Assembly: GCA_016716605.1 (NCBI GenBank)
Contig: JADJWA010000001.1
Location: 2,349,342-2,413,341 of the forward strand
Source: Flavobacteriales bacterium
GTDB lineage: Bacteria > Bacteroidota > Bacteroidia > Flavobacteriales_F > PHOS-HE28
Reading direction: 5' to 3'
Length of the DNA: 64,000 bases
Part shown: positions 1,990 to 55,828 of the stretch, piece after piece
How the letters are laid out: each line of letters begins with the position of its first letter
Position numbering within the stretch: the first letter of the stretch is position 1
Program-made: the position numbers and the translations under genes
The notes under the pieces: generated by a model
Seen by the model: only the letters and a program-made list of their open reading frames with translations
Databases searched by the model: none
Told to the model about the DNA's origin: nothing

Positions 1990-2055
1990 ATTCGCCGCCC
2001 GCAACTCCACCATTCGCCATGTCGAGCGGAGCAACAACCCTCAACCCGAGATAGA

Positions 2056-2925: not shown

Positions 2926-3015
2926 TCCAGCCTCGCATCGTGGTGCTGACGGCACGACACCTCAGCAGCGAATTGCCCTTGCAATGAGGGCGAGGAGGCA
3001 CCACCAAGCAGACCG

Positions 3016-3035
3016 ATTACCGGTTTTCTGGTATT
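3016..3035. promoter_or_regulatory. NarL/LuxR-type 7-2-7 inverted-repeat box (TACCGGT-TT-TCTGGTA), copy A
   Basis: Imperfect palindrome ATTACCGGTTTTCTGGTATT. It lies immediately upstream of the response-regulator gene. A near-identical copy is at 7589-7609. Confidence 0.5.
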
Positions 3036-3042
3036 TTCCCCG

Positions 3043-3747: not shown

Positions 3748-3758
3748 ACCAACGACCG

Positions 3759-4202
3759 ATGAGCTGGAACATCAATGATCCTGAGGCGGAAGTGAACGAA
3801 GAGTACCAGAGCAAGATCACGCATCCGAAGAACCAGTACTTCACCGGGGAGCGGGTGCTGGACCTTGAGAATCAGGTGATCACGTTGAAGTACGCGGAGC
3901 GCATCGGAGTGGACGAAGGAAGCGAGGATATTCAGCTGGGATTGGACCGTGCTGATGAAGAGGAGGATGAGCAATGGGTGCTCTATGTCGAAGTCGACCC
4001 GCCTGATCCGAAGTCCGAGAGCGCACGACGGAAGCCGGTGCGGATGTCAACTTCCGGCGGAGGCGGAGGCGATGAACAGCGCACGGTCGTGATCAAGAGC
4101 CCGGCTGAGGTGCGCTTGCGCGTTCGTTCAGCGAAGATCTCGTTCAAGCCGGCCATCAAGACCAAGCCGTTCCCCGATCCGGGCAAGCTCAAGCGGCCTT
4201 AG
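3759..4202 (+). CDS. Hypothetical acidic protein (147 aa), no recognisable domain
   Basis: Clean ORF with protein-like composition, 11 bp after the regulator stop. It has an acidic stretch (DEEEDEQ), a Gly5 run and a basic tail. Confidence 0.5.
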   Translation: MSWNINDPEAEVNEEYQSKITHPKNQYFTGERVLDLENQVITLKYAERIGVDEGSEDIQLGLDRADEEEDEQWVLYVEVDPPDPKSESARRKPVRMSTSGGGGGDEQRTVVIKSPAEVRLRVRSAKISFKPAIKTKPFPDPGKLKRP

Positions 4203-4216
4203 TCTTCCAAGCGGGT

Positions 4217-30421: not shown

Positions 30422-30426
30422 GAACA

Positions 30427-37051: not shown

Positions 37052-39301
37052 ATGAAACAACTCAACGCATTCGTCTTCTGCGCGCTGATCAGTTCGCCCG
37101 CGCTTTCCGTCACGGTGACCATACAGATGTACATACCGGCATTCTGCACGTACCCGACCGGATCGATCTACGCGCAGCCGCAAGGCGGGACGGAGCCTTA
37201 CACCTATTCCTGGAGCACGGGCTCCACGGACTCGTGGCTGAACGATCTGGTAGCGGGCACTTACAGTGTCACCGTAACGGACGCGAACCTGGAACAGGCC
37301 ACCGCGGAATTCACGCTCACGGCCTCTCCTTTTGAAGCGTGGGTGGATGGCATGGTCGGCTGCCCGGACCAAATGCTCGGCCCTCCATTCCGGATGCTCG
37401 GACAGGCTAGCATTTACAATACGGGCGTTCCTCCATTGACCTTGTCCGGGAATTATGTCTCGGATGTGATCGATGGTCCGAATGGCTACGCCGCCTTGTA
37501 TGTGGGCAACTTCGATATGTGGCCTCCTGCTGGCACACCGCTCTCCATCGCTTTCACCGATGCCAATGGTTGTCCGGGAACGATCTACGGGCAGGTTCCG
37601 CAGCCGCCTGCGCACCCTGATCGGCAAGTGCTCATGGTGGATGCTGCGTGCGCCGCCGAATTCAATGGCAGCGCTCTGGTGCAGGTGGATGAAGCGCCCA
37701 ACGATGACCCCTACCTCTTGCGGCTCATCCGTGATGGTGCGGACGCCGGTGATCTCCAGACACAGTCCACGATTGGCCAGATGTTCGGCCAGATCCCGCA
37801 CAACATTTTGCGTCAGAATCTCGCACCGGGGGAGTACGCGTTGGTCTCGTCGCCGAGATTCGAGGACTCCGCTTACGAATGGCTTGAAGGGTACTTCTTC
37901 GTATCCGAGGATTACTGCACGGACACCGTGTGGTTCACCGTGCCTGAGATGCCGGGACCCTGTGGCACGCTGAAGGGCACCGTCTATATGGACGATAACC
38001 AGGATTGCATCATGGCGGGCCTCGAGACGCGCGTGCCGAACGAGGTGATGCTGATCGAACCTGGAGGCTACACTGCGATGTCCGGGGCCAATGGATACTA
38101 CCAGGTCAACCTGCCCACCGGGTCCTACACGGTCGAACAAGCTTCTGCCGTGCTCGACGAGCATTGCATCGGAGGGCCGATCCCATTCAACCTGGGAAGC
38201 AACGGGCAATCCGTGACGCAGAACATGGGCGATACGGTACTCGTGCCGCGTGACATTGAGCTTTTCATCGGTTCAGGCCCGGCACGCCCTGGCTTCAACT
38301 ACAACCTGTGCCTGCACATCCATCACGAGACGCTCGGCGGAACCGGCACGCTCACCGTGTCCTGCACCTTCGATCCGGCGCTCACCTTCACCAGTGCCAG
38401 CCCGACGCCCGTGGTGAACGGCAACACCCTCACCTGGACGCTCGCGCAGCTCATCTCATTCGGCAATCGGCACATCAACGTGAACCTGCAGGTGCCGCCG
38501 AACCCGGCCTTGATCGGCACCGAACTCATGCACAGCGCCACGGCGAGCATCGCGCAGCCCGAAACGAACCTGACCAACAACAGCGCGGTGCATCTGCGCA
38601 CCGTGACCGGCAGCTACGACCCCAATGACAAGCTGGCCACCACCAGCAGCCAGTTGAGCGACGCGCTCTACTACATCGATCAGGACGAGTGGATCGACTA
38701 CACCATCCGATTCCAGAACACGGGAACGGACACGGCCTTCAACGTGGTGATCACCGACACGCTGCCGCCGACGCTCGATCCCGGCACCTTCGAGCTCGGG
38801 CCGCGCTCGCACAGCTGCATCACGCAAATGGCTGGTCAAGGCATCGTGCGCTTCATCTTCAACAACATCCAGTTGCCGGACAGCAACGTGAACGAGCCTG
38901 CTTCGCATGGCCTTGTGCAGTTCCGGATCAAGCCGCACCTGCCTATCGCGCCCGTCACGGTGATCGAGAATATCGCTAGCATCTTCTTCGACTTCAACCC
39001 ACCGGTGATCACCGAGCCGAGTGTGTTGGTGGCGGAGTTCAGTACACGCGTACAGGAAGAGGGTCAAGAGGAGCTTCGAGTCTTCCCGAACCCAGCGAGC
39101 GATGAACTCACCGTGATGCTGAGCGAACCAGCCAATGGCCACATTCGGGTCATGGAGATGGATGGACGAGTGGTGACGGAACAGCGGATGACCGGTCCAA
39201 GTGTCACGTTGGATGTTTCACGCCTTTCCACCGGCGCGTACATGCTGGAAGTACTTGAAGGATCGGGTGGGCGGAGGCTTTCGCGTTTCGTTCGACAGTA
39301 A
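37052..39301 (+). CDS. Array paralog 5
   Basis: Same architecture, with the CTD …LRVFPNPASDELTV…AYMLEV…FVRQ. Confidence 0.85.
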   Translation: MKQLNAFVFCALISSPALSVTVTIQMYIPAFCTYPTGSIYAQPQGGTEPYTYSWSTGSTDSWLNDLVAGTYSVTVTDANLEQATAEFTLTASPFEAWVDGMVGCPDQMLGPPFRMLGQASIYNTGVPPLTLSGNYVSDVIDGPNGYAALYVGNFDMWPPAGTPLSIAFTDANGCPGTIYGQVPQPPAHPDRQVLMVDAACAAEFNGSALVQVDEAPNDDPYLLRLIRDGADAGDLQTQSTIGQMFGQIPHNILRQNLAPGEYALVSSPRFEDSAYEWLEGYFFVSEDYCTDTVWFTVPEMPGPCGTLKGTVYMDDNQDCIMAGLETRVPNEVMLIEPGGYTAMSGANGYYQVNLPTGSYTVEQASAVLDEHCIGGPIPFNLGSNGQSVTQNMGDTVLVPRDIELFIGSGPARPGFNYNLCLHIHHETLGGTGTLTVSCTFDPALTFTSASPTPVVNGNTLTWTLAQLISFGNRHINVNLQVPPNPALIGTELMHSATASIAQPETNLTNNSAVHLRTVTGSYDPNDKLATTSSQLSDALYYIDQDEWIDYTIRFQNTGTDTAFNVVITDTLPPTLDPGTFELGPRSHSCITQMAGQGIVRFIFNNIQLPDSNVNEPASHGLVQFRIKPHLPIAPVTVIENIASIFFDFNPPVITEPSVLVAEFSTRVQEEGQEELRVFPNPASDELTVMLSEPANGHIRVMEMDGRVVTEQRMTGPSVTLDVSRLSTGAYMLEVLEGSGGRRLSRFVRQ

Positions 39302-39313
39302 CAACCACTAGTC

Positions 39314-41587
39314 ATGAAGAACATTCCGAGCCGTGTCCGCTGGTGCATCGTATGGAGCTGTGCGCTCCTGTTCGCCAGCATAGATGGGCAGGCGCTCACT
39401 GTGAGCCTTCAAGTCATCCAGGCCGACATCTGCGGGCAGGGCGCCGGTATGCTTGAGGCCAGCGCTTCGGGTGGCACGGAGCCTTACCAGTATGATTGGT
39501 ACCGGATCGTGAACGAGATCCCCGAGGTGTACTGCTTGGACTGTGGTGCGAACATCCAGGACCTGCCGGGCGACAACACCTACAAAGTGGTCGTGACGGA
39601 TGCCCTTGCCCTGATGGCCGAGCAGACCGCATCCATCAGCGTTGATATGTTGTGGGGAATGACGGATTATTTGAACGTATTCGCGTACGTGGCTGGCGAG
39701 CTTCCCTATATGAAGGTGTACGTGGGGGGGGCATGGGGGCAACTGGGACCTGGAAGCAGCGCAGTGGTTGAAGTGACCGGCGCGGATCTCTACGAGGAAC
39801 CTGTTTTCCCGGGTTCCGGGCTCGGGAACTGGTGGTTCAGGCCCAATGCTCCTTCCGGCATGGTCACGGTCACTTACACGTTCACCGGTGGCCAGTGCGT
39901 CGCTCAAGAAGCTTTCACTGTGCCTCCGCCGGTCGTGATCCCCGATATGGTGGTACTGGACGTTCAAGGCTCATGCTCCAACGCAGCGACAGGGAGTGTG
40001 ACCATAGCGCTCAGCAATGGTGTTACAGGGCAAAGCACACTCCTGCCATGGCTTGGTGGGGCCTATTCGCCACCCGGCCAGTACGTTCCGGTCCTTCTGA
40101 ATGGGACGACCGTCACGCTGGAGAATTTGTATCCCGGAGTGGATTCGTTCTTCGTGTCCGGCAATCTCAATTCCGCGTCACCCGGCAACCTGGGCTTTCC
40201 GTATGGTTGCGTCGGCTCCGTCCAATTCACGATCCCGAACCTTGGACCTACTTGCGGTCGTGTTCAAGGCAAGGTCTTCATGGACAACAACCTCGATTGC
40301 GCCATTCAAGGAGTTGAACCGGGCGTACCGGATGTGGTGTTGGAGGTGGTTCCGGGGCCGTACTATTCCAATACGGGCAGTAGCGGTCAGTACCAATTGC
40401 ACCTCCCGAACGGCAGCTACTCAGCGGCGCTCATCAGCAGCGTCGTGGAAGAGCAGTGCACGGGCTCTGCCATTCCCTTCACCATCGCCGGTAACACGGC
40501 CACCGTGAACATGCCGTCCATATCGCTGGTACCCTTGGATGCGAACATCGCCCTTGCCGGCGGTGCAGCACGGCCTGGCTTCGAGTACCACGTGGGACTC
40601 GCTACGCGCAACCTGACACCAGCGCCGAGCGGTGCTATTACCGTTACTATGGACTTCGACCCTGCGCTGGGCTTCATCAGCGCTACGCCAGCACCCACCA
40701 CGGTGCTGGGTAATACGCTCACATGGGATCAGCCGGAGTTCACGCCCTTTCAACAGCGTTCCATTCAAGTGCGTTTGCAGATCCCACCGGATGTCGGTCT
40801 CATCGGTACCGATCTGATCACCACGGCCAGTGTTGCAACACTCAACGCCGATACTGATCCTTCCAACAACACGACCACATTGGTGCGAACGGTCACGGGC
40901 AGCTTCGACCCCAACGACAAACTCGCGCGGACGAGCAGTGGCCAGAGCGCTGCTCTCTACTTCATCGATCAGGACGAGTGGATCGATTACACCATCCGCT
41001 TCCAGAACACCGGCACGGATACCGCCTTCCACATCATCGTTACCGATACGCTGCCCGGGACACTCGATCCTTCAACGCTGGTGATCGGCGCCGCATCGCA
41101 TCCGTTCACCTGGCAGCTCCGCGAGCAAGGCACATTGAAGTTCAGGTTCTTCGACATCCTGCTTCCGGACAGCAACGTGAACGAAGCCGCGAGCCATGGT
41201 TTCGTTTCGTTCCGCATCCGTCCGCGCATGCCCGTGTTGCCGGGTATGGTGATCGAGAACACCGCCAACATCTACTTCGACTTCAACCCGCCGGTGATCA
41301 CCGAACCGAGCGTGCTGGTGGCGGAGTTCAGTACGGGGGTGGCACAGCAGCGGAGCAGTGCGATCTCCTTGGCACCGGTGCCTGCGAGCGATGAGTTGAT
41401 CGTGACCAGTGGCGATGCAATGTCGAACGTGTTGATCCTGGCCGCCGATGGCCGTGAGGTGATGCGCATGAGCGCGCGATCACCGCACCTACGCATCGAC
41501 CTGAACGGTTTGAAGAGCGGGGCCTACCTGCTCATAGCGGAACTCCAGCACGGAACAACGGCGCGCGAGCGCTTCATCAAACAATGA
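39314..41587 (+). CDS. Array paralog 6
   Basis: Same architecture. It contains an in-frame G8 tract at about 39724-39731. Confidence 0.85.
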   Translation: MKNIPSRVRWCIVWSCALLFASIDGQALTVSLQVIQADICGQGAGMLEASASGGTEPYQYDWYRIVNEIPEVYCLDCGANIQDLPGDNTYKVVVTDALALMAEQTASISVDMLWGMTDYLNVFAYVAGELPYMKVYVGGAWGQLGPGSSAVVEVTGADLYEEPVFPGSGLGNWWFRPNAPSGMVTVTYTFTGGQCVAQEAFTVPPPVVIPDMVVLDVQGSCSNAATGSVTIALSNGVTGQSTLLPWLGGAYSPPGQYVPVLLNGTTVTLENLYPGVDSFFVSGNLNSASPGNLGFPYGCVGSVQFTIPNLGPTCGRVQGKVFMDNNLDCAIQGVEPGVPDVVLEVVPGPYYSNTGSSGQYQLHLPNGSYSAALISSVVEEQCTGSAIPFTIAGNTATVNMPSISLVPLDANIALAGGAARPGFEYHVGLATRNLTPAPSGAITVTMDFDPALGFISATPAPTTVLGNTLTWDQPEFTPFQQRSIQVRLQIPPDVGLIGTDLITTASVATLNADTDPSNNTTTLVRTVTGSFDPNDKLARTSSGQSAALYFIDQDEWIDYTIRFQNTGTDTAFHIIVTDTLPGTLDPSTLVIGAASHPFTWQLREQGTLKFRFFDILLPDSNVNEAASHGFVSFRIRPRMPVLPGMVIENTANIYFDFNPPVITEPSVLVAEFSTGVAQQRSSAISLAPVPASDELIVTSGDAMSNVLILAADGREVMRMSARSPHLRIDLNGLKSGAYLLIAELQHGTTARERFIKQ

Positions 41588-43800
41588 GGACCATGACCTT
41601 GCAGCAGACCCGAAGTGCCGCCACCATGGCTGCTATCTGCCTCGCGTTCGTCTCGAATGCTGCCACGGCGTACATCACCGTGATGAAGCCGGAGACTTGC
41701 GGCAACTCGAACGCCGAGCTTTCCTGCAACATCAGCGGCAGCGGAGCGGTGGCGCCCTATACCTACTTGTGGAGCAACGGTTCCACCACGCAGATGCTCA
41801 CCGGCGTACCGGGAGGCGCTTACTCGGTCACCATAACCGATGCGGTGGGTACACCGTTCACAGCGAACGCCACAGTGGAGAGCCTGAGCGCGCTACCCTT
41901 CGATGGTGATATCAACTACTATCCGAGCTACGGCTCGTTCTACGACATAACAGGCTTCACGGGCGGGGCGTGCGCGGGGCAGTGCAATGGAATGCTCAGC
42001 ATGCCCATGGTCTCCTTGGGCGGCACGGCTCCTTTCACCGTTGATTTTAGCGTGGCTGCGAACTATGAGGGGCTCGACACCTATGGCTTCCCGTATTACT
42101 CCGGCTTCTGCGCAGGTGAGTTCGTGACCTATACCATCACCGATGCGTTCGGCTGCCAGGGCTCCGGTTTGTTCACGGTACACACCACCGACGAGACCGC
42201 ACTGCCGTCATTGAACGGGGTCGAAGGTGCTTGCGCCGGATCTGACATCGGAAGTATCTCCCTTTACCAGGACTGGGGATATTCCAGGTTCCAGCTCTAT
42301 TCCAACAGCACGGGCAACCCTATTGGCAACGAAGTGGAACTCGTTGAATTCACCCCGCACGAGTACGAGGATCTGCCTCCAGGGGATTACACCTTGCAGG
42401 CATACCCCATGTTGGGCCAGTGCCTGTTCACGCCGGTTTTCAACGTTCCCGACCTGGGTCCCGGCTGCACGACGGTGGAAGGCAATGCGTGGTTCGATCA
42501 GGATGGCGACTGCGTGTGGGATGGTGGCGAGGTGGGCGTGCCGGGGAGCGTTATGGTGATCCAGCCCGGAACGCAATACGCGATCACGGGAGGCAATGGG
42601 CACTACAGTTTCAATCTGGCAGCGGGCAATTACACCATCGCGCAGACCAACCCCACGCTTGTTCCCTATTGTCCGGTAACGCAGCCCGTGCCTTTCACGG
42701 TGAACGGGCCCATCGCCAACATCGATTGGGCCAACAACAGCACCGCACCGCTCGACCTGCGCGCGAACATCAACTCCACATGGGCACGGCCGGGTTTCTC
42801 GCACAGGATCTCTGGCGGTGCGGCCAACAACACGGTGCAGGCCACGGGAGCCGTGGAGGTTATCATGACGATCGACCCGACGCTGGACTTCGTGAGCGCC
42901 ACGCCGACACCGACCTCGACCGCAGGCAACGTGTTCACCTGGCAGATCGCCGAGTTGGACTACTTCGGCGCGCAGGGTTTCATCATCTGGACGACTGTGC
43001 CTGTTGGCACGCCGCTGGGCACGGTGCTCAACCATAGCATCAGTGTTTCCAGTGCGAACACCGACACCTACGTGGCGAACAACACGGATAGCGAGACAAG
43101 AGTGGTATCGGGCAGCTACGACCCGAACGACAAGACCGCTGCGACCAGCTCGCACCTGAGCGATGCTCTTTATTTCATCAACGAGGACGAATGGATCGAT
43201 TACACCATCCGTTTCCAGAACACGGGCACGGCGGAGGCTTTCTTCATCACCATCACCGATACGCTGCCGGAGGAACTGGACATGACAACGTTCCAGATGG
43301 CCTTGGCCTCGCATGCACACACCTACACTTTCAAACCCGGTCGCGTGGTGGAGTGGTTCTTCGATGCCATCAACCTTCCGGACAGCACGACGGACCTTGC
43401 CGGAAGTCAGGGCTTCTTGAAGTTCAGGATCAAGCCTGTGCAGCCTTTGCTAGCAGGAACGGTTCTCACCAACACAGCGAACATCTACTTCGACTTCAAT
43501 GAAGCGGTGATCACCGAGCCGAGCGTGCTGGTGGCGGAGTTCAGTACGGGGGTGGAGGAGGTGAGCACAACCAATTTGCGGCTTTCGCCGGTGCCGGTCA
43601 TTGATCAGCTGAATATTGCTTCGTCCAACGAGATCCGATCGGTGCGGATCGTGGCTGCTGACGGGAGAGATGTGGCCCAGCGGACGGTCTGGGCATCCGT
43701 CGCCAGCATCGACGTCTCTATGTTGAATGCAGGCGCTTACCTGCTCATCGCTACCATGATCGACGGAAGTGCCGTACGCGAGCGCTTCCTTAAACCTTGA
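41584..43800 (+). CDS. Array paralog 7
   Basis: ATGA overlap with paralog 6. Same architecture. The pre-CTD block varies here: FDFNEAVITEPSVL instead of FDFNPPVITEPSVL. Confidence 0.85.
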   Translation: MRTMTLQQTRSAATMAAICLAFVSNAATAYITVMKPETCGNSNAELSCNISGSGAVAPYTYLWSNGSTTQMLTGVPGGAYSVTITDAVGTPFTANATVESLSALPFDGDINYYPSYGSFYDITGFTGGACAGQCNGMLSMPMVSLGGTAPFTVDFSVAANYEGLDTYGFPYYSGFCAGEFVTYTITDAFGCQGSGLFTVHTTDETALPSLNGVEGACAGSDIGSISLYQDWGYSRFQLYSNSTGNPIGNEVELVEFTPHEYEDLPPGDYTLQAYPMLGQCLFTPVFNVPDLGPGCTTVEGNAWFDQDGDCVWDGGEVGVPGSVMVIQPGTQYAITGGNGHYSFNLAAGNYTIAQTNPTLVPYCPVTQPVPFTVNGPIANIDWANNSTAPLDLRANINSTWARPGFSHRISGGAANNTVQATGAVEVIMTIDPTLDFVSATPTPTSTAGNVFTWQIAELDYFGAQGFIIWTTVPVGTPLGTVLNHSISVSSANTDTYVANNTDSETRVVSGSYDPNDKTAATSSHLSDALYFINEDEWIDYTIRFQNTGTAEAFFITITDTLPEELDMTTFQMALASHAHTYTFKPGRVVEWFFDAINLPDSTTDLAGSQGFLKFRIKPVQPLLAGTVLTNTANIYFDFNEAVITEPSVLVAEFSTGVEEVSTTNLRLSPVPVIDQLNIASSNEIRSVRIVAADGRDVAQRTVWASVASIDVSMLNAGAYLLIATMIDGSAVRERFLKP

Positions 43801-43803
43801 ACC

Positions 43804-46026
43804 ATGCGTGCTTTCTCCCTTCTCGCCTCATTCGCCTTGGCGACCGGTGCATCCGCGTTCAACATCCAGTTGACACCCTATCCCGAGACATGCGGTAACG
43901 GCAATGGATACGTGACCGTGTACATCGATGGGCCGGCGATGGAACCGCTCACATATGCTTGGTCGGACGGGTCAGATGGTCCGGAGCTCATGAATGTGGG
44001 CGCTGGCACCTACAGCCTCACCGTCACTGACTTCTTTGGTGAATGGGCGACCGCCCAGGTGACCGTGATCAACCAGCCAGGGCTCACCAGCATCGGCGGT
44101 GGGCAAGTGAGTTATGGCGTTGATGATCTGTTCGGCCACACCGGCGTGGCCTGCCCGGGAGCGTGCAACGGAGCCCGCTATATGTACTTTTTCGACGGAA
44201 CGGCTCCATACACCGTGACATGGTCGGACCCATCCGTCACCTTCTACGCCAACTTCTTGGGCATGCCTGTTTTCACGGATTTCTGTTCCGGGACCGTGTA
44301 TGACTACACCGTGACGGACGCCTTCGGTTGCCCTGGAAGCGGCAGCTTCATCGACACCTTGATCAACCCGGCCTATCCATCGGAGATCACTTTGGTTGAA
44401 GGTGCGTGCGGCGGTGGGGCGAATGGAGCGATCGAGATCTGGATCAACCCGGCATGGTTCGATGGTGGCGGGAATTGGCTATCGCTTTGGCAGGGTGGGG
44501 TGGACATCACCTTGCAAGTGGGCTATCAATTCCTCGGTGGCAACATAATCCGTTATTCTGCATTGGCGCCTGGTGCCTATGAGTACCGGCGGATCGCTGG
44601 CTCACCAGGATTGCCGTCTGAGTGCATGGAGATCATTCCTTTCGTGATCGAGGACCTCGGTTCAGCTTGCGGGAATGTTTCGGGCACCTTGTTCATCGAT
44701 CATGACCAGGATTGCATACAGGGTGCGAACGATCCTGGCGTGCCCTTCAGAGTCCTGAACATCGAGCCCGGGTCGGAACTGGCCATTACCAGTACGCACG
44801 GGGAGTACTCCCGGAATCTTCCGCTCGGTTCATACACCCTGGCGCCGAGCGGATCCGATCTCTATCCGCTGTGCCCATCCTCTTCGCCAGTCCCATTCGA
44901 CTTGACCGTTCCTGTTCCGCTGGCGGTGCTAGACCTGGCGGACAGCAGCCTGGTCGATCTGGATCTGGAGACGTTCATTTCAGCTGGTCCGGCCAGGCCG
45001 GGATTCGTTCATCAAGTGCAGGGGCAGGTGCGCAACATGAGTGGGCAGCTATCCTCATCAGTGGATGCCACCTTCACCTTCGACCCATCGCTGTCGTTCA
45101 TCGGCGCCGCGCCGACACCGACAAGCGTGGTGGGTAACGTGATCATATGGAGCGACCTGCCGCCGATGGTCGGCTTTGACATGCTCGACTTCTCCGTCGT
45201 ACTGCAGGTTCCACCGGATCCCGGACTGCTCGGAACCGCCATCACACACGTTCTCGAAGCGACGCAATCGTTCACAGAAGCCGATCCAGGCAACAACATG
45301 GCAACTTGGAACGATGTGATCACGGGCAGCTACGACCCCAACGACAAGCTCGCTCGGACCAGCAGTGGCCAAAGTGACTCGCAGTACTTCATTGCACAGG
45401 ATGAATGGATCGACTACACGATCCGGTTCCAGAATACGGGAACGGATACGGCCTTCACGGTCGTGATCACCGATACGCTTTCAGCATGGCTGGACATGGC
45501 CACGTTCGAGCAGGGCGCGGCATCGCACGGGTTCAGCATCCGGTTCAAACCCGGGAGGGTGGTGGAATGGCGCTTTGCCGGCATCGCGCTTCCCGATAGC
45601 ACCACAGACGAGGTAGCGAGCCATGGATTCGTCACCTTCCGCATCTGGCCGCAATTGCCATTGTTGCCCGGCACCGTGATCGAGAACATCGCGAACATTT
45701 ACTTCGACTTCAACCCGCCGGTGATCACCGAGCCGAGCGTGCTGGTGGCGGAGTTCAGCACGGGGGTGAATGATGCATTGCCTTCTGAAGCATTGCTGAG
45801 CCCGAACCCTGCGATGGACCGTGTGCGCTTGAGCGAGGCATCGGTCGCGGCCAAGGTGCTCCGGTGGGAAGTCGTTTCCTCTTCGGGTGCGACCTTGGAA
45901 CAAGGCAGCGGCCCCATCCCCGCGTCGGGGATCGCCATCGGGCACTTGGAGGATGGCGCATACTTCCTGCGCATGCACACGGTGAATGAGACCCGCAACG
46001 AACGCTTCATCAAGATCGGCCAATGA
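43804..46026 (+). CDS. Array paralog 8
   Basis: 3-bp gap before the gene. Same architecture. Confidence 0.85.
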   Translation: MRAFSLLASFALATGASAFNIQLTPYPETCGNGNGYVTVYIDGPAMEPLTYAWSDGSDGPELMNVGAGTYSLTVTDFFGEWATAQVTVINQPGLTSIGGGQVSYGVDDLFGHTGVACPGACNGARYMYFFDGTAPYTVTWSDPSVTFYANFLGMPVFTDFCSGTVYDYTVTDAFGCPGSGSFIDTLINPAYPSEITLVEGACGGGANGAIEIWINPAWFDGGGNWLSLWQGGVDITLQVGYQFLGGNIIRYSALAPGAYEYRRIAGSPGLPSECMEIIPFVIEDLGSACGNVSGTLFIDHDQDCIQGANDPGVPFRVLNIEPGSELAITSTHGEYSRNLPLGSYTLAPSGSDLYPLCPSSSPVPFDLTVPVPLAVLDLADSSLVDLDLETFISAGPARPGFVHQVQGQVRNMSGQLSSSVDATFTFDPSLSFIGAAPTPTSVVGNVIIWSDLPPMVGFDMLDFSVVLQVPPDPGLLGTAITHVLEATQSFTEADPGNNMATWNDVITGSYDPNDKLARTSSGQSDSQYFIAQDEWIDYTIRFQNTGTDTAFTVVITDTLSAWLDMATFEQGAASHGFSIRFKPGRVVEWRFAGIALPDSTTDEVASHGFVTFRIWPQLPLLPGTVIENIANIYFDFNPPVITEPSVLVAEFSTGVNDALPSEALLSPNPAMDRVRLSEASVAAKVLRWEVVSSSGATLEQGSGPIPASGIAIGHLEDGAYFLRMHTVNETRNERFIKIGQ

Positions 46027-48245
46027 CCAGGAACAGGACCCTCTCCTTCGCGCTCGCACTATTCGGATCGTTACGCATCGTAGCACTGCAAGTGGATGTG
46101 ATCAACCCCGTCCAATCAGCGTGCGGCTATCCGACTGGCATCATGGAAGCCTTGATCAGTGGCGGTGTTCCGCCGTACACGATCGCGTGGAACACGGGCG
46201 CCACCACAGAGATCATCACGGGTCTGTTGCCCGGCACCTACAGCGTAACGGTGACGGATTTCGTGGGTACGCAGGCTTTCGGGCAAGGCGATGTGGGCGT
46301 GACCAACATGCAGCAAGGCGGACAGACGTACGCCAACCTCGCGCATTGCCCTGGAGGATTTCCCATGGCGGAGCTCACGCTGTTCAATCAAGCCCAATAC
46401 GGTGCATACATCTGGGGTGCGCCACCGTTCACGATCACCGGACCCGCAGAGGTCCAAGGTGTTTCCGTGGTGCAATGCACGAATTGCTCCGGCATGGATT
46501 CCCTGGTCCGTGTTGAGATGAACGTTCCCTCGGGATCCTTTCAGACGATCACCTGGGAGGATGCGAACGGCTGCCCCGGCGAGAGCCAGGTGGTCATGAG
46601 CACGGAGGCGGTGTGGCCCAGTGTCTTTGTGTACGACGTGCAGGGATCGTGCGCAGGCGGCAACAACGGGACCTTCGCTTTCTCGGTCAGTCCGCTATCG
46701 TCTCAATTGATGACCCTGCGCATCTACCGGCCGAGCGGCAACTTGCTCTCGTCGGTTCCTATCGGACCAGGCACGGCCGGTGCGCATGGCCAGCTTTCTC
46801 CGGGGACCTATGTGCTGAAGGTCGTTGCCGAGACCAACGGTCCTTTCGATGATGAGCTCTGCTGGGACCAGACCGTCGCAGTGATCGACGACTTGGGCAA
46901 CGGCTGCGCGAATGTGAACGGTCCGGTCTTCATCGATGGCAATGCCAACTGCACCTGGCAGTTCAACGAGAACAAGATCCCGCAGGCCATCGTGGAGTTC
47001 ACGCCCGGGCCTTACTATGCCACCTCGAACGCCATCAGCGGCTACAGCACGAACCTGCCGCTCGGCACCTACGACCACACGGTGATCCATCCCGGTGCAC
47101 AGCAGGAATGCCCCGGTCCCTTCACGTTGGATGGCTCACAGAGCAGCGTGACCAGGCCGATCGGCTGTTCATCGCTTTTCCCGCTGGATGCCCAGGTGAC
47201 CGGATGCAACGGACCGGCACGACCCGGCTTCCAGCTCTTGTATGGGCTGAACCTTCGCAACAACACGGCTGCGAACGCAGGTGCCAGCACGCTCACCTTC
47301 GAGTTCGATCCGGTGCTGAGCTTCGTTTCGGCATCGCCCACGCCGTCGTCGGTGGTTGGCAACACCGTCACATGGAGCCTGACTGGCATTGGCGCTTATG
47401 CGAGCACCTATCGCTTCGTGCATTTACAGGTGCCACCGGACATCGGTCTCATCGGCACCACGCTCAATGCCACAGCCACGGTTTCCACCACGAACACCGA
47501 TGCTGTTCCGGCCAACAATGCGTGGACATCGCAGCAAACCGTCACGGCCAGCTACGACCCCAACGACAAACTGGCAAGCACCAGCACCGGCCAAAGCGAT
47601 GAGGTGTACTTCATCGATCAAGATGAATGGATCGACTACGTGATCCGATTCCAGAACACCGGCACGGACACCGCTTTCCATGTGGTGGTCACCGACACGC
47701 TGCCATCCACTCTTGATCCAGCCACCATCGAGGTGGGCGCGGCCTCGCACGCGATGAACTGGAACCTCACCGGCCATGGCATCCTGCGGTTCAACTTCCC
47801 GAATATCCTGCTGCCCGATAGCAACGTGAACGAGCCCGCGAGCCACGGATTCGTGGGCTTCCGCGTTAGGCCTCGATTGCCGATCGAGCCAGGCACCCTC
47901 ATCGAGAACATCGCCAACATCTATTTCGACTATAACCCGCCGGTGATCACCGCGCCGAGCGTGCTGGTGGCGGAGTTCAGCACGGGGGTGGGGGAGGCCC
48001 GTGCGCAGGAGCTGGTTCTGATGCCCAACCCGACGAATGGCGAACTGCAGGTGCAGTTGCCTGAGCAAGGACATGACGGAGGTACCATCCGCATACTTGC
48101 CATGGACGGACGTGCTGTGCTTGAACTGCGGTCCAACGATAACCGAACCCTTCTGGACCTTTCCGGTCTTGGCGCTGGACCTTACCTGTTGGAATGGACC
48201 AGTATCGGCGGTACACGGGTGCTGAGGCCCTTCGTGCGACAATGA
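46023..48245 (+). CDS. Array paralog 9
   Basis: ATGA overlap with paralog 8. Same architecture. Confidence 0.85.
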   Translation: MTRNRTLSFALALFGSLRIVALQVDVINPVQSACGYPTGIMEALISGGVPPYTIAWNTGATTEIITGLLPGTYSVTVTDFVGTQAFGQGDVGVTNMQQGGQTYANLAHCPGGFPMAELTLFNQAQYGAYIWGAPPFTITGPAEVQGVSVVQCTNCSGMDSLVRVEMNVPSGSFQTITWEDANGCPGESQVVMSTEAVWPSVFVYDVQGSCAGGNNGTFAFSVSPLSSQLMTLRIYRPSGNLLSSVPIGPGTAGAHGQLSPGTYVLKVVAETNGPFDDELCWDQTVAVIDDLGNGCANVNGPVFIDGNANCTWQFNENKIPQAIVEFTPGPYYATSNAISGYSTNLPLGTYDHTVIHPGAQQECPGPFTLDGSQSSVTRPIGCSSLFPLDAQVTGCNGPARPGFQLLYGLNLRNNTAANAGASTLTFEFDPVLSFVSASPTPSSVVGNTVTWSLTGIGAYASTYRFVHLQVPPDIGLIGTTLNATATVSTTNTDAVPANNAWTSQQTVTASYDPNDKLASTSTGQSDEVYFIDQDEWIDYVIRFQNTGTDTAFHVVVTDTLPSTLDPATIEVGAASHAMNWNLTGHGILRFNFPNILLPDSNVNEPASHGFVGFRVRPRLPIEPGTLIENIANIYFDYNPPVITAPSVLVAEFSTGVGEARAQELVLMPNPTNGELQVQLPEQGHDGGTIRILAMDGRAVLELRSNDNRTLLDLSGLGAGPYLLEWTSIGGTRVLRPFVRQ

Positions 48246-48276
48246 TGATCCTGATGCGAAACCTGGTTGAATTACC

Positions 48277-50973
48277 ATGATGAACAAGATCCTCTTGAGC
48301 ATTATCTGCTTGGTCGGCCACCTGACCGCAGCAGCCGTTACCGTGAATATCTCGGTGAACTGGCAACCGCTGTGTACCGGCGCCAATGGTGAATTGAGCG
48401 CGTATGCAAGTGGAGGGGTGGGTCCATACACGTTCCTGTGGTCGAATGGGGCAACCAGCGAGACGATATCGAACCTGGAAGCCGGTACCTATAGCGTTAC
48501 CGTGACCGATGGCAACAGCGACCAAGCGACAGATGAGATCGAGTTGACCTCCATCGACTACTCGGACCCCAACTATTCGGGTTGGGGCACCAGGCCGTAT
48601 TGTCCCGGGGTGTATCCGGATGCGCCGTTCATCATCATCGTACCCGAGCTGAGCATGGTTCAATGGGGTCCACCACCGTACTTCCTGAACGGCGAGTTCA
48701 TGGATGTGGTCAACCCGTTCGAAAATTGGACGAACTACCTGGGCGCCGTGCCGGGAACTCCCGGGGTCACCTACAACATAACCTTCCAGGATGGCAATGG
48801 ATGCACGGGCCAATGGCCTGTAACTCCTGTTGGTCCGGTCCAATGGCCGGTGCTGGGGATCCTCAATATCCAGGGCTCCTGCGACAACTTCGACACAGGC
48901 AGCATCACGATCGCTTACGGCGGCACCAACGCCACCGAGACCAGTTACACGCTGGAGAATGTGAGCATCCAACAGATGATAGTGGCGCCTGGCAATGGGC
49001 AGTGGTTGGGGCCGAACCCCGGTACGATACAGCTCAACGAACTCCCTCCGGGTGATTACCGCTTCAGGCAGCGCATCATCGGACTGTGGGAAAGCCCCGA
49101 GTGTTACGATGAGCTCTTGTTCACCATTCCCGACCTGGGTCCCACTTGCGGCAGAGTGCAAGGACAGGCCTTCGTGGATTACAACGAGAACTGCACCAGG
49201 CAGTCGAACGAACCGTTCGCGCCGGGGCAGATCATTGAAGTGTTGCCGGGGCCCTATTACGCGACCACGGCCGGGTCGGGAGCGTATTCGCTGATACTCC
49301 CCTTCGGCAACTACACCTTGACCCAGCAAAGCACCCAGCTGGCCGAGCATTGTGCCGGTGGCCCGATCCCCTTCACCATCGCCGCATCACCGAACATCGT
49401 CACCCGCAACCTGCCGGACACCTCGTTGGTGGGCCTTGATGTGCAAGCCATGCTCAGCAGCGGTGCTGCCCGGCCTGGGTTCGAATTCCAGTACGCCATC
49501 AACGTGCGCAACCTGACCCCAGCGGCAAGCGGCGCCACCACGGTCACGTTCACCTTCGACCCCACCCTTACTTACCTCTCCGCCACGCCCACCCCCAGCA
49601 GTGTAAGCGGCAACACCATCACGTGGAACCAAGCCCAACTCACGGCATGGCAGTCGCGCAGTTACACCATCAGCTTCCAGGTACCGCCCGATGTGGGACT
49701 GCTGGGTTATGAATTGATGGCCACGGCCAACGTTTCCACCACCAATTCAGACGGCAACCCGGCCAACAACAGCGCCACCAACCTGCGCACCATCACCGGC
49801 GCATACGACCCCAATGACAAGCTCGCCTATACCAGCAGCGGCAGCACCGATGTTTGGGATATCAACGACGACGAGTGGATCGATTACACCATCCGCTTCC
49901 AGAACACCGGGACGGACACGGCCTTCCATGTGGTGATCACCGACACGCTGCCTGCCAATCTTGATCCGGGAAGCATCGTCATGGGAGCTGCCTCGCACAC
50001 GTTCTCGTGGGAATTACACGGCGAAGGAACACTGAAGTTCTACTTCCCGAGCATCCTGCTGCCCGACAGCAACATCAACGAGCCGCGCAGCCACGGCCTC
50101 GTCGGTTTCCGTATCCGCCCGCGATTGCCGCTATTGCCCGGCGATGAGATCGAGAACATCGCCAACATCTACTTCGACTTCAACCCGCCGGTGATCACCG
50201 AGCCGAGCGTGCTTGTAGTGCCTCTGCCAGGCGCGCTGGTGGCACCGCGCGTGCTGCTCGGTGGCCCATACGTGCAGGCCACGCAGCGTATGAACGATGG
50301 CCTGCGCACCGCTGGCCTGGTTCCGCTCGCCGAACCATACAGTGCACTCGGCTACAACCATGTCGGCGGTGGGGGAGAGAGCGTTGCACCGGCCGTGCTG
50401 GCAGTCACGGGCGACAACGCCATCGTGGATTGGGTGGTGGTTGAACTGCGCAGTGCCACGTCGCCCTATTCGGTGCTGGCCACGCGCAGCGCATTGGTGC
50501 AGCGCGATGGGGATGTGGTGGCCACGAATGGTACCGGTCCGATCACGTTCAGCCAGGGGAATGGCAACTACCGGATCGCCATCCGGCACCGCAACCACTT
50601 GGGGGCCATGACCAATGCCGCTGTGACCTTGAACACGAGCACGGCCACGCTGGTGGACCTTTCGGTTCCGGCCACGGCCACCTATGGCACCAGCGCGCGC
50701 AAAGCCGTGGGCACCCGCATGGTGCTTTGGAGCGGTGACATCAATTTTGACGGAATCGTGAAGTATGTCGGCTCAAACAATGACCGTGACCCCATCCTGA
50801 CTGCAATAGGGGGCAGCACGCCCACCACGGTGGTGAGCGGCTCCTATCATGGGACGGACGTGAACCTCGATGGACAGCTGAAGTACGTCGGAACGAACAA
50901 CGACCGCGACATCATCCTGCAGACCATCGGGGGCTCGGTGCCTACCGCGGTCCGACATGAGCAACTGCCTTAA
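48277..50973 (+). CDS. Array paralog 10: same N-terminal/DUF11 body, but the T9SS CTD is replaced by a ~250-aa tail with two D-x-N-x-D-G-x-V-K-Y-V-G Ca-binding-like repeats
   Basis: 898 aa. It is colinear with paralogs 1-9 up to …FDFNPPVITEPSVLV. After that it diverges (VPLPGALVAPRVLLGGPY…DINFDGIVKYVGSNNDRD…DVNLDGQLKYVGTNNDRD…). Confidence 0.8.
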   Translation: MMNKILLSIICLVGHLTAAAVTVNISVNWQPLCTGANGELSAYASGGVGPYTFLWSNGATSETISNLEAGTYSVTVTDGNSDQATDEIELTSIDYSDPNYSGWGTRPYCPGVYPDAPFIIIVPELSMVQWGPPPYFLNGEFMDVVNPFENWTNYLGAVPGTPGVTYNITFQDGNGCTGQWPVTPVGPVQWPVLGILNIQGSCDNFDTGSITIAYGGTNATETSYTLENVSIQQMIVAPGNGQWLGPNPGTIQLNELPPGDYRFRQRIIGLWESPECYDELLFTIPDLGPTCGRVQGQAFVDYNENCTRQSNEPFAPGQIIEVLPGPYYATTAGSGAYSLILPFGNYTLTQQSTQLAEHCAGGPIPFTIAASPNIVTRNLPDTSLVGLDVQAMLSSGAARPGFEFQYAINVRNLTPAASGATTVTFTFDPTLTYLSATPTPSSVSGNTITWNQAQLTAWQSRSYTISFQVPPDVGLLGYELMATANVSTTNSDGNPANNSATNLRTITGAYDPNDKLAYTSSGSTDVWDINDDEWIDYTIRFQNTGTDTAFHVVITDTLPANLDPGSIVMGAASHTFSWELHGEGTLKFYFPSILLPDSNINEPRSHGLVGFRIRPRLPLLPGDEIENIANIYFDFNPPVITEPSVLVVPLPGALVAPRVLLGGPYVQATQRMNDGLRTAGLVPLAEPYSALGYNHVGGGGESVAPAVLAVTGDNAIVDWVVVELRSATSPYSVLATRSALVQRDGDVVATNGTGPITFSQGNGNYRIAIRHRNHLGAMTNAAVTLNTSTATLVDLSVPATATYGTSARKAVGTRMVLWSGDINFDGIVKYVGSNNDRDPILTAIGGSTPTTVVSGSYHGTDVNLDGQLKYVGTNNDRDIILQTIGGSVPTAVRHEQLP

Positions 50974-51182
50974 GTGAAGAATTGACCGGCACAAGCAACC
51001 ATTTCCTTGCCGCCCGTCATTGGAGTGCTCTTACCCAAAGACCCGCACCATGGACCGCACCGTGCCTTCGGCAAGCAAGACCCGCACCTCGGACCGCTCC
51101 GCCCTGATCCGCACCAGCATGCTCCTCTTCGCCCTGCTGGCCGTGGCCTCGTTCGCGCTCGCCCGCGTAGTGGCCTAGCCCC

Positions 51183-52145
51183 TCACGGGAGCCTCGGCTC
51201 TGGCAGCCAGCCGCGCCGCTCCAGCGTATCGATCAGCGCTGCATTGAACAGCTCCACGCCCGCCTGATTCAGGTGCCCCTTCGTGAAGAAGTGAAGGCTG
51301 TCTGAGAGTTCCACCTTCCCGTTCATGTTGATGTACCGCCCGCTCGCTGCCATGCGCCGTTCGAATGCGTCGTGGTCCGAGAAGCCGTTCTCATAATACC
51401 AGCGGGTCATCGGCGCCTCAACGAGGATCACCTCCACGCCTTCCTCGCGCAGAGCTTTCAGCATCCGCTCAAAGGCATTCCATTGTATCGGCAGCGGTTC
51501 CACCGGCTCGCGTTTCAGGCTCCCCTTCGGATCGAAGTTCCCCGACCTGCGCTCCACGAAGCCGCCATCGATGTAGGCATCCATGCCGCGGACCCGCGCT
51601 TCCGGCAGCCGTTCATCGGCACCAGTGGCTTGCCTCACCAGGCCATAGGCGAGGGCGTTCCATGTGAGCACATCGCGCAAGCGCAGCGCCATGCCTAGAG
51701 TATGCGCGTCGATCGGCCGGTTGGCGATCATATCGATTGCGGACTCGATGCCGTCAGACCGGAAGGGGTTCGGATGCACTTCCACGATGACCAGCTTCGG
51801 CTTCAACCGGGACAGATGGGCCATCGCCAGCAACTCCGATTGCAGCAAGGATTGCGCGGAGGAGCCGAGGTTGAAGGACGTGTAGCCATGCTCCAGCCAG
51901 AAGCGCGGATCGAAGCCTCGGTAGGCGTGCGAACTGCCCATGAACACGATATCGACGGGTGGATGCTGAGCGAGTTCCTTCATCCGTGTGCGCTGGTGGC
52001 CGTATCCATTCAAGGGGTAACGGATATTCGGCGTGTAGGCATTGGGCAATGCGACGCTGAATAGGGTGAGCAGCACCGGGTAAAGGGCCGCGGTGAACAG
52101 GCCGAAGCCCAGCACGCGCAGCAGGAAGGGGAGGAGGGCGCGCAT
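51183..52145 (-). CDS. Hypothetical periplasm-facing partner protein of the MBOAT acyltransferase (DltD/AlgJ/AlgX-like SGNH-type, tentative)
   Basis: 320 aa with an N-terminal TM anchor. It overlaps the MBOAT stop by 1 bp, an arrangement typical of MBOAT plus accessory-protein pairs. Confidence 0.5.
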   Translation of the reverse strand: MRALLPFLLRVLGFGLFTAALYPVLLTLFSVALPNAYTPNIRYPLNGYGHQRTRMKELAQHPPVDIVFMGSSHAYRGFDPRFWLEHGYTSFNLGSSAQSLLQSELLAMAHLSRLKPKLVIVEVHPNPFRSDGIESAIDMIANRPIDAHTLGMALRLRDVLTWNALAYGLVRQATGADERLPEARVRGMDAYIDGGFVERRSGNFDPKGSLKREPVEPLPIQWNAFERMLKALREEGVEVILVEAPMTRWYYENGFSDHDAFERRMAASGRYINMNGKVELSDSLHFFTKGHLNQAGVELFNAALIDTLERRGWLPEPRLP

Positions 52146-54828: not shown

Positions 54829-54903
54829 TCGGGGTGAGTGGATTCGAACCACCGACCTCGTCGTCCCGAACGACGCGCGCTAACCGGGCTGCGCTACACC
54901 CCG
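54829..54903 (-). tRNA. tRNA-Pro (anticodon CGG), 75 nt, no encoded CCA
   Basis: Folds by hand into a cloverleaf: acceptor CGGGGTG/CACCCCG, D-arm GCGC…GCGC, anticodon stem CGTCG/CGACG with loop TTCGGGA (G37), and T-arm GGTGG-TTCGAAT-CCACT. Confidence 0.85.
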
Positions 54904-55755: not shown

Positions 55756-55828
55756 GCGGGAGTAGCTCAGTTGGTAGAGCATCAGCTTCCCAAGCTGAGG
55801 GTCGCGGGTTCGAATCCCGTTTCCCGCT
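55756..55828 (+). tRNA. tRNA-Gly (anticodon CCC), 73 nt, discriminator U
   Basis: Acceptor GCGGGAG/TTCCCGC, D-arm GCTC-AGTTGGTA-GAGC, anticodon stem TCAGC/GCTGA with loop TTCCCAA, and T-arm GCGGG-TTCGAAT-CCCGT. Confidence 0.85.

Follow-up and report, generated by a model that had tools for sequence, protein, structure and literature searches.

A tandem array of ten paralogous genes in an uncultured environmental Flavobacteriales bacterium raises two questions: why do proteins sharing ~40% amino-acid identity overall carry a short tract of almost identical DNA, and why does the last of the ten leave the family sequence just there? The array lies in a 64,000-nt stretch of DNA, called the window below. 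The genes are tightly packed, with overlapping stop and start codons in several neighbouring pairs, and all ten genes, like all ten copies of the conserved tract, are in direct orientation (ORF list, string match). The genes were delimited from the ORF list and their translations, and the array as a whole with Pfam as well.

28175-50973, + strand: tandem array of ten paralogs, p1-p10
28175-30421, + strand: p1
30394-32670, + strand: p2
32667-34856, + strand: p3
34863-37043, + strand: p4
37052-39301, + strand: p5
39314-41587, + strand: p6
41584-43800, + strand: p7
43804-46026, + strand: p8
46023-48245, + strand: p9
48277-50973, + strand: p10

Translations and Pfam matches revealed a shared layout of a signal peptide, an SprB repeat, a variable head, DUF11/CLIPPER, DUF7619 and a tail, and the products of p1-p10 are secreted surface proteins. 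The DUF7619 model (PF24595) matched all ten paralogs at 135-146 bits, against a cut-off of 27. DUF7619 has been placed among the CnaA-like domains with a Lys/Asp/Asn isopeptide triad (PMC12617251). Its fold is CnaA-like and related to DUF11/CLIPPER, with a predicted Lys-Asn isopeptide bond. Neither the ten paralogs nor 191 homologs vary at the Lys of DPNDK, the Asp of ITDT or the Asn of IEN/FDFN; the putative bond-forming Asn of the paralogs (IEN or FDFN) was picked by spacing only.

The tails divide the array into nine genes and one. A T9SS type A C-terminal domain (CTD) of 80-90 amino acids, fitting PF18962/TIGR04183, terminates p1-p9. Its PF18962 score exceeds the Pfam cut-off in p1-p5 and p9, and the domain is recognizable below the cut-off in p6 (18.2 bits), p7 (26.2 bits) and p8 (17.8 bits). 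Neither PF18962 nor TIGR04183 was found in p10, and a search downstream of this gene found no relic of a CTD.

45763-46026, + strand: p8 tail, linker and T9SS type A CTD, an exchangeable cassette (PF18962, TIGR04183; tail replaced in relatives)
47985-48245, + strand: p9 tail, on the same evidence as that of p8
50215-50970, + strand: p10 tail, a 252-aa C-terminal module in place of the T9SS CTD (homologs, AF2, fold matches)

Between head and tail, all ten paralogs contain a block of roughly 70-90 nt that encodes IENIANIYFDFNPPVITEPSVLVAEFSTG. Rather than being just a linker, it makes up roughly the final 22-28 codons of DUF7619. The PF24595 match stops at the block, at model position 127-129 of 133, and in the CTD-bearing copies the AEFSTG linker motif comes after DUF7619. 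The copies are listed here together with what they correspond to in two related genomes, L001 and L002.

30074-30157, + strand: p1 block (sequence comparison)
32335-32418, + strand: p2 block (string match, sequence comparison)
34521-34604, + strand: p3 block, where the L001 ortholog changes to an unrelated CTD
36702-36785, + strand: p4 block (string match, sequence comparison)
38963-39046, + strand: p5 block, the crossover site of the L001 chimera of p5 head and p7 CTD
41252-41335, + strand: p6 block (string match, sequence comparison)
43465-43548, + strand: p7 block; p7 of the window is the nearest sequence to the tail of both the L001 and the L002 chimera
45679-45762, + strand: p8 block, IENIANIYFDFNPPVITEPSVLVAEFST, covering the DUF7619 3' end and the AEFST motif
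47901-47984, + strand: p9 block (sequence comparison)
50149-50214, + strand: p10 block, ending after ...EPSVL (GTG CTT), without the AEFST part

An earlier note on this DNA had described a 62-nt string as nearly identical among paralogs, including at synonymous positions. This description was borne out, and for all ten genes, with 87-89% identity and a dS of about 0.4. The string occurs in every paralog (expected by chance 0.00), with one to five mismatches at starts 30092, 32353, 34539, 36720, 38981, 41270, 43483, 45697 and 47919. The p10 copy, which starts at 50167, has ten mismatches, all within its final 15 nt. As also described before, p10 keeps the block and then departs: it follows the family through ...GAGCCGAGCGTGCT (50213/50214), and unrelated sequence begins after GTG CTT (50214). 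The note also placed the block in what may be the region of cleavage and attachment. The second conserved block that had been proposed around SYDPNDK is real as well, with a lower codon identity of 0.63-0.72, and it is a weaker second joint. Between them, the two blocks hold the invariant residues that they share with CnaA-like isopeptide domains, namely the Lys of DPNDK and the Asn residues of IEN and FDFN (PMC12617251).

45328-45456, + strand: second block of p8, SYDPNDK...RFQNTGTDTAF, the start of DUF7619 with the predicted isopeptide Lys
47550-47678, + strand: second block of p9
49801-49926, + strand: second block of p10

The main block differs from the rest of the gene at the nucleotide level. 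Between pairs of paralogs, nucleotide identity averages 0.87-0.89 within the block, but only 0.47 for the heads, 0.43 for the CTDs and 0.66 for the remainder of DUF7619. Synonymous divergence (NG86/JC) is about 0.41-0.48 in the block, whereas it reaches 1.7 in the head, 1.0 at the start of DUF7619, 1.4 in its middle and 2.0 in the CTD. Since values elsewhere are thus 1.0-2.0, the dS profile along the genes is not flat and has its trough in the block. For about 33 of the 45 paralog pairs the longest exact run falls in the block, where such shared runs measure 19-50 nt. At identical residues, codon usage predicts a codon identity of 0.45-0.54; the block shows 0.79-0.84, and the other regions agree with expectation. 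A GENECONV-style maximal-run permutation test returned 'significant' runs only because columns polymorphic solely through p10 cluster there, and these runs were discarded, the test being invalid under site-rate heterogeneity.

Comparisons with related genomes revealed chimeric copies, which support the reading of the block as a joint. In L002, the head and DUF7619 of p10 are joined to a p7-like T9SS CTD, and the crossover maps to a tract of about 23 nt within the block over which p10 and p7 do not differ. L001, which has no p6, carries the p5 head with a p7-like CTD. Up to the block end, p3, p8 and p9 share more than 95% identity with their orthologs in L001, L002 and a third genome, L003 (about 85-90% in L003); past this point the sequences are unrelated. 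Among 42 gene pairs from related Flavobacteriales with at least 85% identity immediately upstream of the block, only 8 have similar tails. Across 52 genomes, the concordance of adjacent 240-nt segments is 0.76-1.00 upstream and 0.19 across the block. In 27 of 28 pairs the change point lies +65 to +115 nt from the block start, at the block's 3' end. Gene pairs are not independent of one another in phylogeny, and we put the number of independent events at about 20. Each crossover is localized only to the identical tract, because BLAST and change-point ends mark where identity stops. The breakpoints are thus clustered and donor-like sequences can be identified, as in mosaic genes, with evidence that is all comparative and mostly from MAGs, some of which carry frameshift errors. 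Among the paralogs of the window, similarity between heads does not correlate with similarity between CTDs (Mantel r = 0.03, p = 0.43) but does correlate with similarity between DUF7619 domains (Mantel r = 0.38, p = 0.016).

We suggest, with a probability of about 0.8, that the block is a joint at the end of DUF7619 where homologous recombination swaps heads and C-terminal tails. Protein constraint and an additional, family-wide constraint on silent sites would ensure that almost any two paralogs have their longest near-perfectly matching DNA tract in the block, so that recombination between misaligned or non-allelic copies would resolve there. We infer that the mechanism is RecA-type homologous recombination, which could proceed by unequal crossing-over or by patch conversion. 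It would pair variable heads with different tails, add or delete units of the array, swap type A T9SS CTD cassettes and occasionally trade a CTD for a 250-aa X-dockerin-like module, as in p10. A single shuttle, PorV, reportedly serves all type A CTDs (PMC12618676), and CTD-for-CTD swaps may therefore be neutral by-products without function.

Such a joint does not by itself say why silent sites in the block are conserved. The earlier note had proposed a recombination or gene-conversion joint; tail exchange at the block stood, while conversion among the ten copies failed as the cause of their near-identity. Ongoing conversion within this array that homogenizes the block is an unlikely explanation, even though the mosaic structure shows recombination at the block and codon identity is slightly higher within genomes (0.76-0.82) than between them (0.73-0.78), or, over the widest ranges, 0.73-0.82 against 0.71-0.78. 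That excess is only about 0.03, so a simple homogenization model does not explain the silent-site conservation. Codon identity between the block of the window and those of distant genomes is 0.81-0.82, matching the 0.80-0.88 within the window, and because conservation is equally strong between distant genomes, it does not stem from recent intra-array conversion. Neutral concerted evolution would let the blocks of separate genomes drift apart, yet codon identity in the block stays at 0.71-0.78 even for pairs with only 30-50% identity in the rest of the domain, and a very divergent gene (P0104) uses the same block codons. Variants private to p1, p5 and p7 indicate that the block is not fully homogenized in the window either.

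The silent-site constraint is regional, family-wide and site-specific, as would be expected if the block contained a selected nucleotide-level element such as an mRNA structure, a protein-binding palindrome, a Chi-like hotspot or an sRNA target. Of 191 copies, 105 contain a perfect 12-bp palindrome, CGGTGATCACCG, and the E. coli Chi octamer GCTGGTGG lies within the block. We nevertheless regard such an element as somewhat less probable than conversion within the array. Five block regions were folded and were not more stable than shuffled sequences (z -1.5 to +1.2), with no stable conserved fold. The silent positions of the palindrome lack the compensatory covariation of a functional hairpin or binding site. 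The Leu codon in the Chi-like octamer is the least conserved codon of the block (CTG 0.57), and no block 8-mer is over-represented in 0.9 Mb outside DUF7619 genes. Open +3 and antisense-aligned frames span the entire domain, which is the expectation at 61% GC, and no overlapping ORF is specific to the block. Scans for Rfam families, promoters and terminators found nothing relevant.

Protein constraint and codon bias alone, with p10 diverging merely at a domain boundary, are less probable again. The block is indeed the most conserved peptide segment (amino-acid identity 0.82-0.88), it holds the invariant Asn residues of the predicted isopeptide domain, and most of its codons are common GC-ending ones. 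However, codon usage, whether plain or conditioned on the next nucleotide, fails to reproduce the block codon frequencies: given the next nucleotide, GCG is used at 0.91 against 0.29 expected, CCG at 0.81-0.88 against 0.38, and GTG at 0.96 against 0.62. The preferences are also specific to the site, with GCC at Ala174, GCG at Ala193, and the rare codons AGT and GGG favoured at 196 and 198. Outside the block, residues that are just as invariant have no preferred codon (D101, GAC/GAT 0.44/0.56; K59, E147 and H119), and the clustering of breakpoints at the block is left unexplained. The raised GC3 of the block, about 0.9, suggests recombination-associated bias or selection. Instead of ordinary codon bias, GC3 and silent-site conservation together probably reflect either selection or a biased conversion that accompanies recombination.

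Finally, it is highly improbable that the chimeric genes are metagenome assembly artefacts, with contigs mis-joined at the block: although the comparison genomes are all MAGs and L001 and L002 contain frameshifts, exact shared runs of at most 50 nt are too short to mislead long-read 'tig' assemblies (L001, L002, L005, L012, L017, L030, L041 and others) or those built with k of 127-141, the discordance recurs across many independent genome pairs, and p8-p9-p10 agrees with the window in L070 and L001 independently. Two dedicated variation systems were also dropped, an invertase shufflon and a diversity-generating retroelement, because the copies are all in direct orientation, share ~40% amino-acid identity and have no recombinase or reverse transcriptase gene in the part of the flanks that was scanned.

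Homologous recombination at the end of DUF7619 thus remains our preferred reading, and the tail of p10 shows what may be exchanged there. The tail is a widespread, unannotated 250-aa module and not a one-off swap. We found 1780 homologs, one of which (P0035) bears a cohesin domain. DUF7619 is followed by a p10-type module with the same junction at at least 20 related loci, and similar heads bear module-type or CTD-type tails with the junction always the same. The exact p10 sequence returned no record on lookup. The tail matched nothing in Pfam, including the dockerin model, or in NCBIfam at E-value cut-offs up to 10, and nothing among PDB sequences in a profile search with an E-value cut-off of 1. 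The tail, modelled with AF2 at pLDDT 92.5, is a beta-sandwich and then two dockerin-like DxNxDG...NDRD repeats, which are seen in the sequence, and it ends in ...EQLP. In Foldseek, its top hits 4u3s_B, 4wi0_B and 2b59_B had probabilities of 0.96-0.98, with E-values of only 2e-3 to 3e-2 and TM scores of 0.3-0.57. The modelled fold resembles an X-module-dockerin.

These best structural matches are the type II X-module-dockerins of cellulosomal scaffoldins (2b59, 4u3s, 4wi0); the p10 tail resembles them in its beta-sandwich and in the pair of repeated, Ca-loop-like DxNxDG segments that lies at its extreme C-terminus. Unlike these, the p10 tail gave no sequence match to the dockerin Pfam model, and its host is Gram-negative. 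It is possible, but doubtful, that the silent sites of the block are kept because it serves as an inherent signal for recombination, a universal joint across the lineage through which adhesin heads are reshuffled between T9SS type A CTD attachment and an undescribed X-dockerin-like anchor present in more than 1,700 proteins.

Cassette-type surface variation by homologous recombination at conserved flanks is known from Neisseria pilE/pilS and Borrelia vlsE. As in those systems, variable cassettes are flanked by conserved nucleotide tracts that serve as the recombination substrate. In contrast to them, the array consists of ten full-length genes with signal peptides, with no sign of an expression site fed by silent donors or of a dedicated recombination factor, and the events are evident on an evolutionary timescale and not within one clone. 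A closer likeness is found in the T9SS surface proteins of Porphyromonas gingivalis, where the adhesin modules of Kgp, RgpA and HagA undergo domain rearrangement and allelic exchange (PMC5266723). In both cases, Bacteroidota T9SS cargo genes share near-identical segments, and adhesin or C-terminal modules recombine between paralogs and strains in a combinatorial, modular fashion. Unlike in P. gingivalis, ten genes stand in tandem here, their joint is the region of the terminal strand of DUF7619, a predicted isopeptide domain, the exchanged unit is the secretion/anchoring tail itself, and silent sites of the joint are conserved throughout the family in different genomes.

The array therefore shows, in a concrete and mapped case, how T9SS-secreted surface proteins diversify in large families, with heads and secretion/anchoring tails as separate cassettes joined at one short conserved DNA tract. 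When such arrays are annotated, orthologous heads should not be taken to mean orthologous tails; the finding also bears on how the gene content of MAGs is compared. Silent-site conservation that is equal within and between genomes, together with raised GC3 at a demonstrated hotspot, provides a small natural test of biased gene conversion versus selection. The comparison also exposes a large unannotated family of C-terminal modules that appears to be an alternative to the T9SS CTD, and it bears on where to seek fast surface variation in the abundant Flavobacteriales of wastewater and soil.

The ten surface-protein paralogs (p1-p10) are packed head to tail and span 726-898 codons each, as judged from ORFs and translations. 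Pfam searches identified an N-terminal SprB repeat, DUF11 and DUF7619 (PF24595, 135-146 bits) in all ten. The T9SS type A sorting domain (PF18962/TIGR04183; hereafter the CTD) forms the end of p1-p9, while Pfam and TIGR scans did not find it in p10, where 252 extra residues occur instead. Neighboring genes overlap or are separated by spacers of at most 31 nt, and from this gene order p1-p10 look like one unit of transcription with coupled translation. A TonB-dependent receptor, a radical-SAM enzyme, an MBOAT protein and an FG-GAP T9SS cargo flank the array, and the GC content of the window is 61%. Nothing suggests that the short ORF downstream of p10 is a real gene.

Features of the array and its surroundings
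7697-13309: FG-GAP repeat protein of 1,870 aa, T9SS type A cargo, 5' of the array
13349-14374: T9SS type A cargo gene (341 aa), 5' of the array
28175-50973, + strand: ten-gene array p1-p10
30394-30421, 32667-32670, 41584-41587, 46023-46026: ATGA-type stop/start overlaps of neighboring paralogs, 4-28 nt
50215-50970, + strand: p10 tail module, 252 aa, ending ...EQLP
51050-51178, + strand: short ORF (MDRTVPSASKTRTSDRSALIRTSMLLFALLAVASFALARVVA) whose product has a single hydrophobic helix, in the gap that separates p10 from the converging gene (51183-52145)
54829-54903 (- strand) and 55756-55828 (+ strand): tRNA genes 3' of the array, the sole Rfam matches in the window

We determined how strongly silent sites are conserved along the paralogs. 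A codon alignment of all ten gave a same-residue codon identity of about 0.40-0.48 almost everywhere, which equals the codon-usage expectation and shows that silent sites are saturated. The exception was the near-identical tract reported in the earlier note (the block, IENIANIYFDFNPPVITEPSVLVAEFSTGV), which lies at the 3' end of DUF7619, just before the CTD or tail; identity there indeed rose to 0.79-0.84 versus an expected 0.45-0.54. The 62-nt string by which it was described is present in all ten paralogs against a chance expectation of zero, with one to five mismatches outside p10 and ten in p10, all within the last 15 nt. The second conserved block, SYDPNDK...RFQNTGTDTAF at the DUF7619 start, is also real (0.63-0.72). 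The proposed check of dS along the genes (NG86/JC) gave a profile that was not flat, with values of 1.7 in the variable N-terminal head, 1.0 and 1.4 at the start and middle of DUF7619, 0.41-0.48 in the block and 2.0 in the CTD. The longest exact run common to two paralogs, 19-50 nt in length, lay in the block for about 33 of the 45 pairs. As noted previously, p10 leaves the family here: it matches its paralogs through ...GTG CTT (50214) and is unrelated 3' of that.

The earlier note had further proposed that the block is a recombination joint at which C-terminal modules are swapped. We compared adjacent 240-nt segments in related loci, and concordance collapsed across the block.

Concordance between adjacent segments (of pairs with identity ≥85% in the first segment, the fraction reaching ≥80% in the second)
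Upstream segments A-B, B-C, C-D and D-E: 0.85-1.00
Over the DUF7619 start (E to D): 0.76
Through the block and on into the tail (E to F): 0.19 (8/42)

In 27 of the 28 discordant pairs, the maximum-likelihood change point lay +65 to +115 nt past the start of the block, out of a searched range of about 430 nt. These pairs span many different genome pairs, and we estimate some 20 independent events. Breakpoints are sharply clustered at the block. The trough in silent-site divergence coincides with the end of DUF7619. Within the window, similarity between heads did not correlate with similarity between CTDs (Mantel r = 0.03, p = 0.43) but did with that between DUF7619 domains (r = 0.38, p = 0.016).

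Close relatives contained the chimeric copies that a comparison of strains had been proposed to reveal. Locus L070 (~92% identity) is colinear with the window from the p7 3' end through p8, p9 and p10 into the flank. Colinear segments in L001 (92-94%) stop at block boundaries: a gene with a p5 head runs into a p7-like CTD, with p6 and the p7 head absent, and the p3 ortholog is >95% identical up to ...GAGCCGAGCGTGCTG, after which an unrelated CTD follows and then p4 as normal. L002 (84-92%) carries a 741-codon gene that is p10-like (80-100%) until the block and p7-like (73-88%) beyond, with the crossover between CCGCCG and GTGCTGGTG in a tract of ~23 nt where p10 and p7 are the same. The L002 copy of p8 diverges directly after ...GCGGAGTTC, and the p9 ortholog of a fourth relative, L003 (79%), directly after ...AGTACGGGTGT. 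The comparison genomes are MAGs, several of them long-read assemblies with frameshifts; exact shared runs of at most 50 nt are too short to produce assembly mis-joins.

Two other irregularities were observed in these loci. L001 lacks ~400 nt at 12057/12058 relative to window positions 48079 to 48481, a stretch that runs from the last part of the p9 CTD through codon 68 of p10. The junction lies away from the block, and the missing sequence may have been truly deleted or lost through an error in long-read assembly. In the p8/p9 region of L070, a called 966-aa product (1601-4501) with two DUF7619 matches and a CTD probably arose when two array units were fused by read-through or a frameshift.

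We infer that the exchanges arise by homologous recombination. Exact runs of 19-50 nt are in the size range generally needed for RecA-type recombination. Unequal crossing-over of misaligned array units would yield a chimera together with deletion or duplication of units (compare L001 and L002), and patch conversion could replace a tail as in the L001 p3 ortholog. A shufflon is not indicated, since every copy lies in direct orientation and the flank ORFs scanned encode no recombinase.

We also asked whether gene conversion within this array explains the silent-site conservation of the block. The comparison used 68 related loci, every one from a Flavobacteriales MAG (53-66% GC), from which 191 DUF7619 domains of 52 genomes were aligned by codon.

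Codon identity in the block
Within the window: 0.80-0.88
Window versus distant genomes: 0.81-0.82
Any two genomes: 0.77-0.82

When pairs were grouped by how far the remainder of the domain had diverged, identity in the block was 0.71-0.78 between and 0.73-0.82 within genomes, compared with 0.54-0.59 at other conserved columns. Because the two are about equal, the silent-site constraint is family-wide. Even P0104, a module homolog with a very divergent DUF7619, retains identical block codons. Neutral concerted evolution predicts much higher identity within than between genomes. The within-genome excess was only ~0.03, so the block's conservation is not mainly due to recent conversion within the array, and classical concerted evolution was rejected. 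The effect is regional, with GC3 reaching 0.88-0.93 in the block and 0.83-0.88 in the SYDPNDK block against 0.65-0.80 elsewhere, a pattern present in all 52 genomes. Raised GC3 and silent-site conservation appear tied to the hotspot, the link being either GC-biased conversion that eliminates S>W changes or selection acting on the tract.

GC bias alone does not explain the site-specific choice of G or C, with GCC at Ala174 and GCG at Ala193 of the 191-domain alignment, nor the preference for the rare codons AGT and GGG at positions 196 and 198. Ordinary codon bias fails too, since the top block codons lie far above usage conditioned on the next nucleotide (GCG 0.91 vs 0.29; CCG 0.81-0.88 vs 0.38; GTG 0.96 vs 0.62). 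Such preference is absent at invariant residues outside the block, for example the putative catalytic Asp (GAC 0.44) and Lys. Scattered conserved columns elsewhere (56, 118, 166) do show site-specific preference (Ser118 TCG 0.68 vs 0.16 background), which suggests that ancestral G/C third positions are partly retained family-wide.

At the protein level, Pfam places the SYDPNDK block at the beginning of DUF7619 and the block at its end. DUF7619 appears in a 2025 survey among the CnaA-like intramolecular isopeptide domains, as a relative of DUF11/CLIPPER with a Lys/Asp/Asn triad, namely Lys657, Asp695 and Asn764 in L7WFS8 (PMC12617251). From residue spacing, the predicted triad here would be the K of DPNDK, the Asp in ITDT and one of two invariant block Asn, in IEN or FDFN. 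These putative residues, including both Asn candidates, are invariant in the ten paralogs and 191 homologs. They account for the amino-acid conservation of the block but not for its silent sites.

Nucleotide-level elements were likewise sought. RNA folding revealed no stable structure in the block, and no block-specific alternative reading frame, over-represented 8-mer or Rfam family match was found. A perfect 12-bp palindrome, CGGTGATCACCG (45719-45730 in p8, corresponding site in other paralogs), encodes PVIT and contains GATC and a BclI site; it occurs in 105 of the 191 DUF7619 copies, across which its silent positions did not covary. The E. coli Chi octamer GCTGGTGG lies inside GTG CTG GTG GCG (45745-45752 in p8, equivalent sites in other paralogs). 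In 0.9 Mb of related sequence the octamer shows no over-representation elsewhere, and no codon of the block varies more than its CTG.

The p10 tail had 1,780 homologs in Flavobacteriales MAGs (E ≤ 1e-3) and no Pfam, NCBIfam or PDB-sequence match. In all 12 homologs inspected in full the module is at the extreme C-terminus, ending ...QLP, and passenger domains in the match list vary (delta-60 repeats, PKD, subtilase, Kelch, cohesin and others). Its confident AlphaFold (AF2) model (pLDDT 92.5, pTM 0.90) best matched X-module-dockerin chains of type II cohesin-dockerin complexes (probability 0.96-0.98, E 2e-3 to 3e-2, TM 0.44-0.57 on target). The predicted fold is thus similar to that of a type II X-module-dockerin. 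Two DxNxDG...NDRDxIL repeats are visible in the sequence of the module's last 70 residues, and a cohesin domain accompanies the module in one homolog, P0035.

DUF7619 is fused to the module in at least 20 fetched loci, always after EPS(V/I/L)L, and p10 orthologs bear the module in L001, L070, L025 and L028. The architecture is therefore old and widespread. The C-terminal swap proposed for p10 is not a recent event in the window, and no CTD relic was found 3' of the gene. The proposal holds in that tail type, as read from these sequences, is exchangeable between CTD and module at the block: the p10 ortholog of L002 bears a CTD, module-type tails occur on p10-like, p6-like and p9-like heads, and CTD-type tails on 31 p10-like heads.

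The closest described case is in P. gingivalis, where adhesin modules of T9SS cargo are rearranged combinatorially and by allelic exchange (PMC5266723). More generally, exchange at the block resembles cassette recombination at conserved flanks. Since the same PorV shuttle is reported for all type A CTDs (PMC12618676), replacing one CTD with another may be a neutral by-product of array dynamics. A swap between CTD and module would alter the protein's mode of display.
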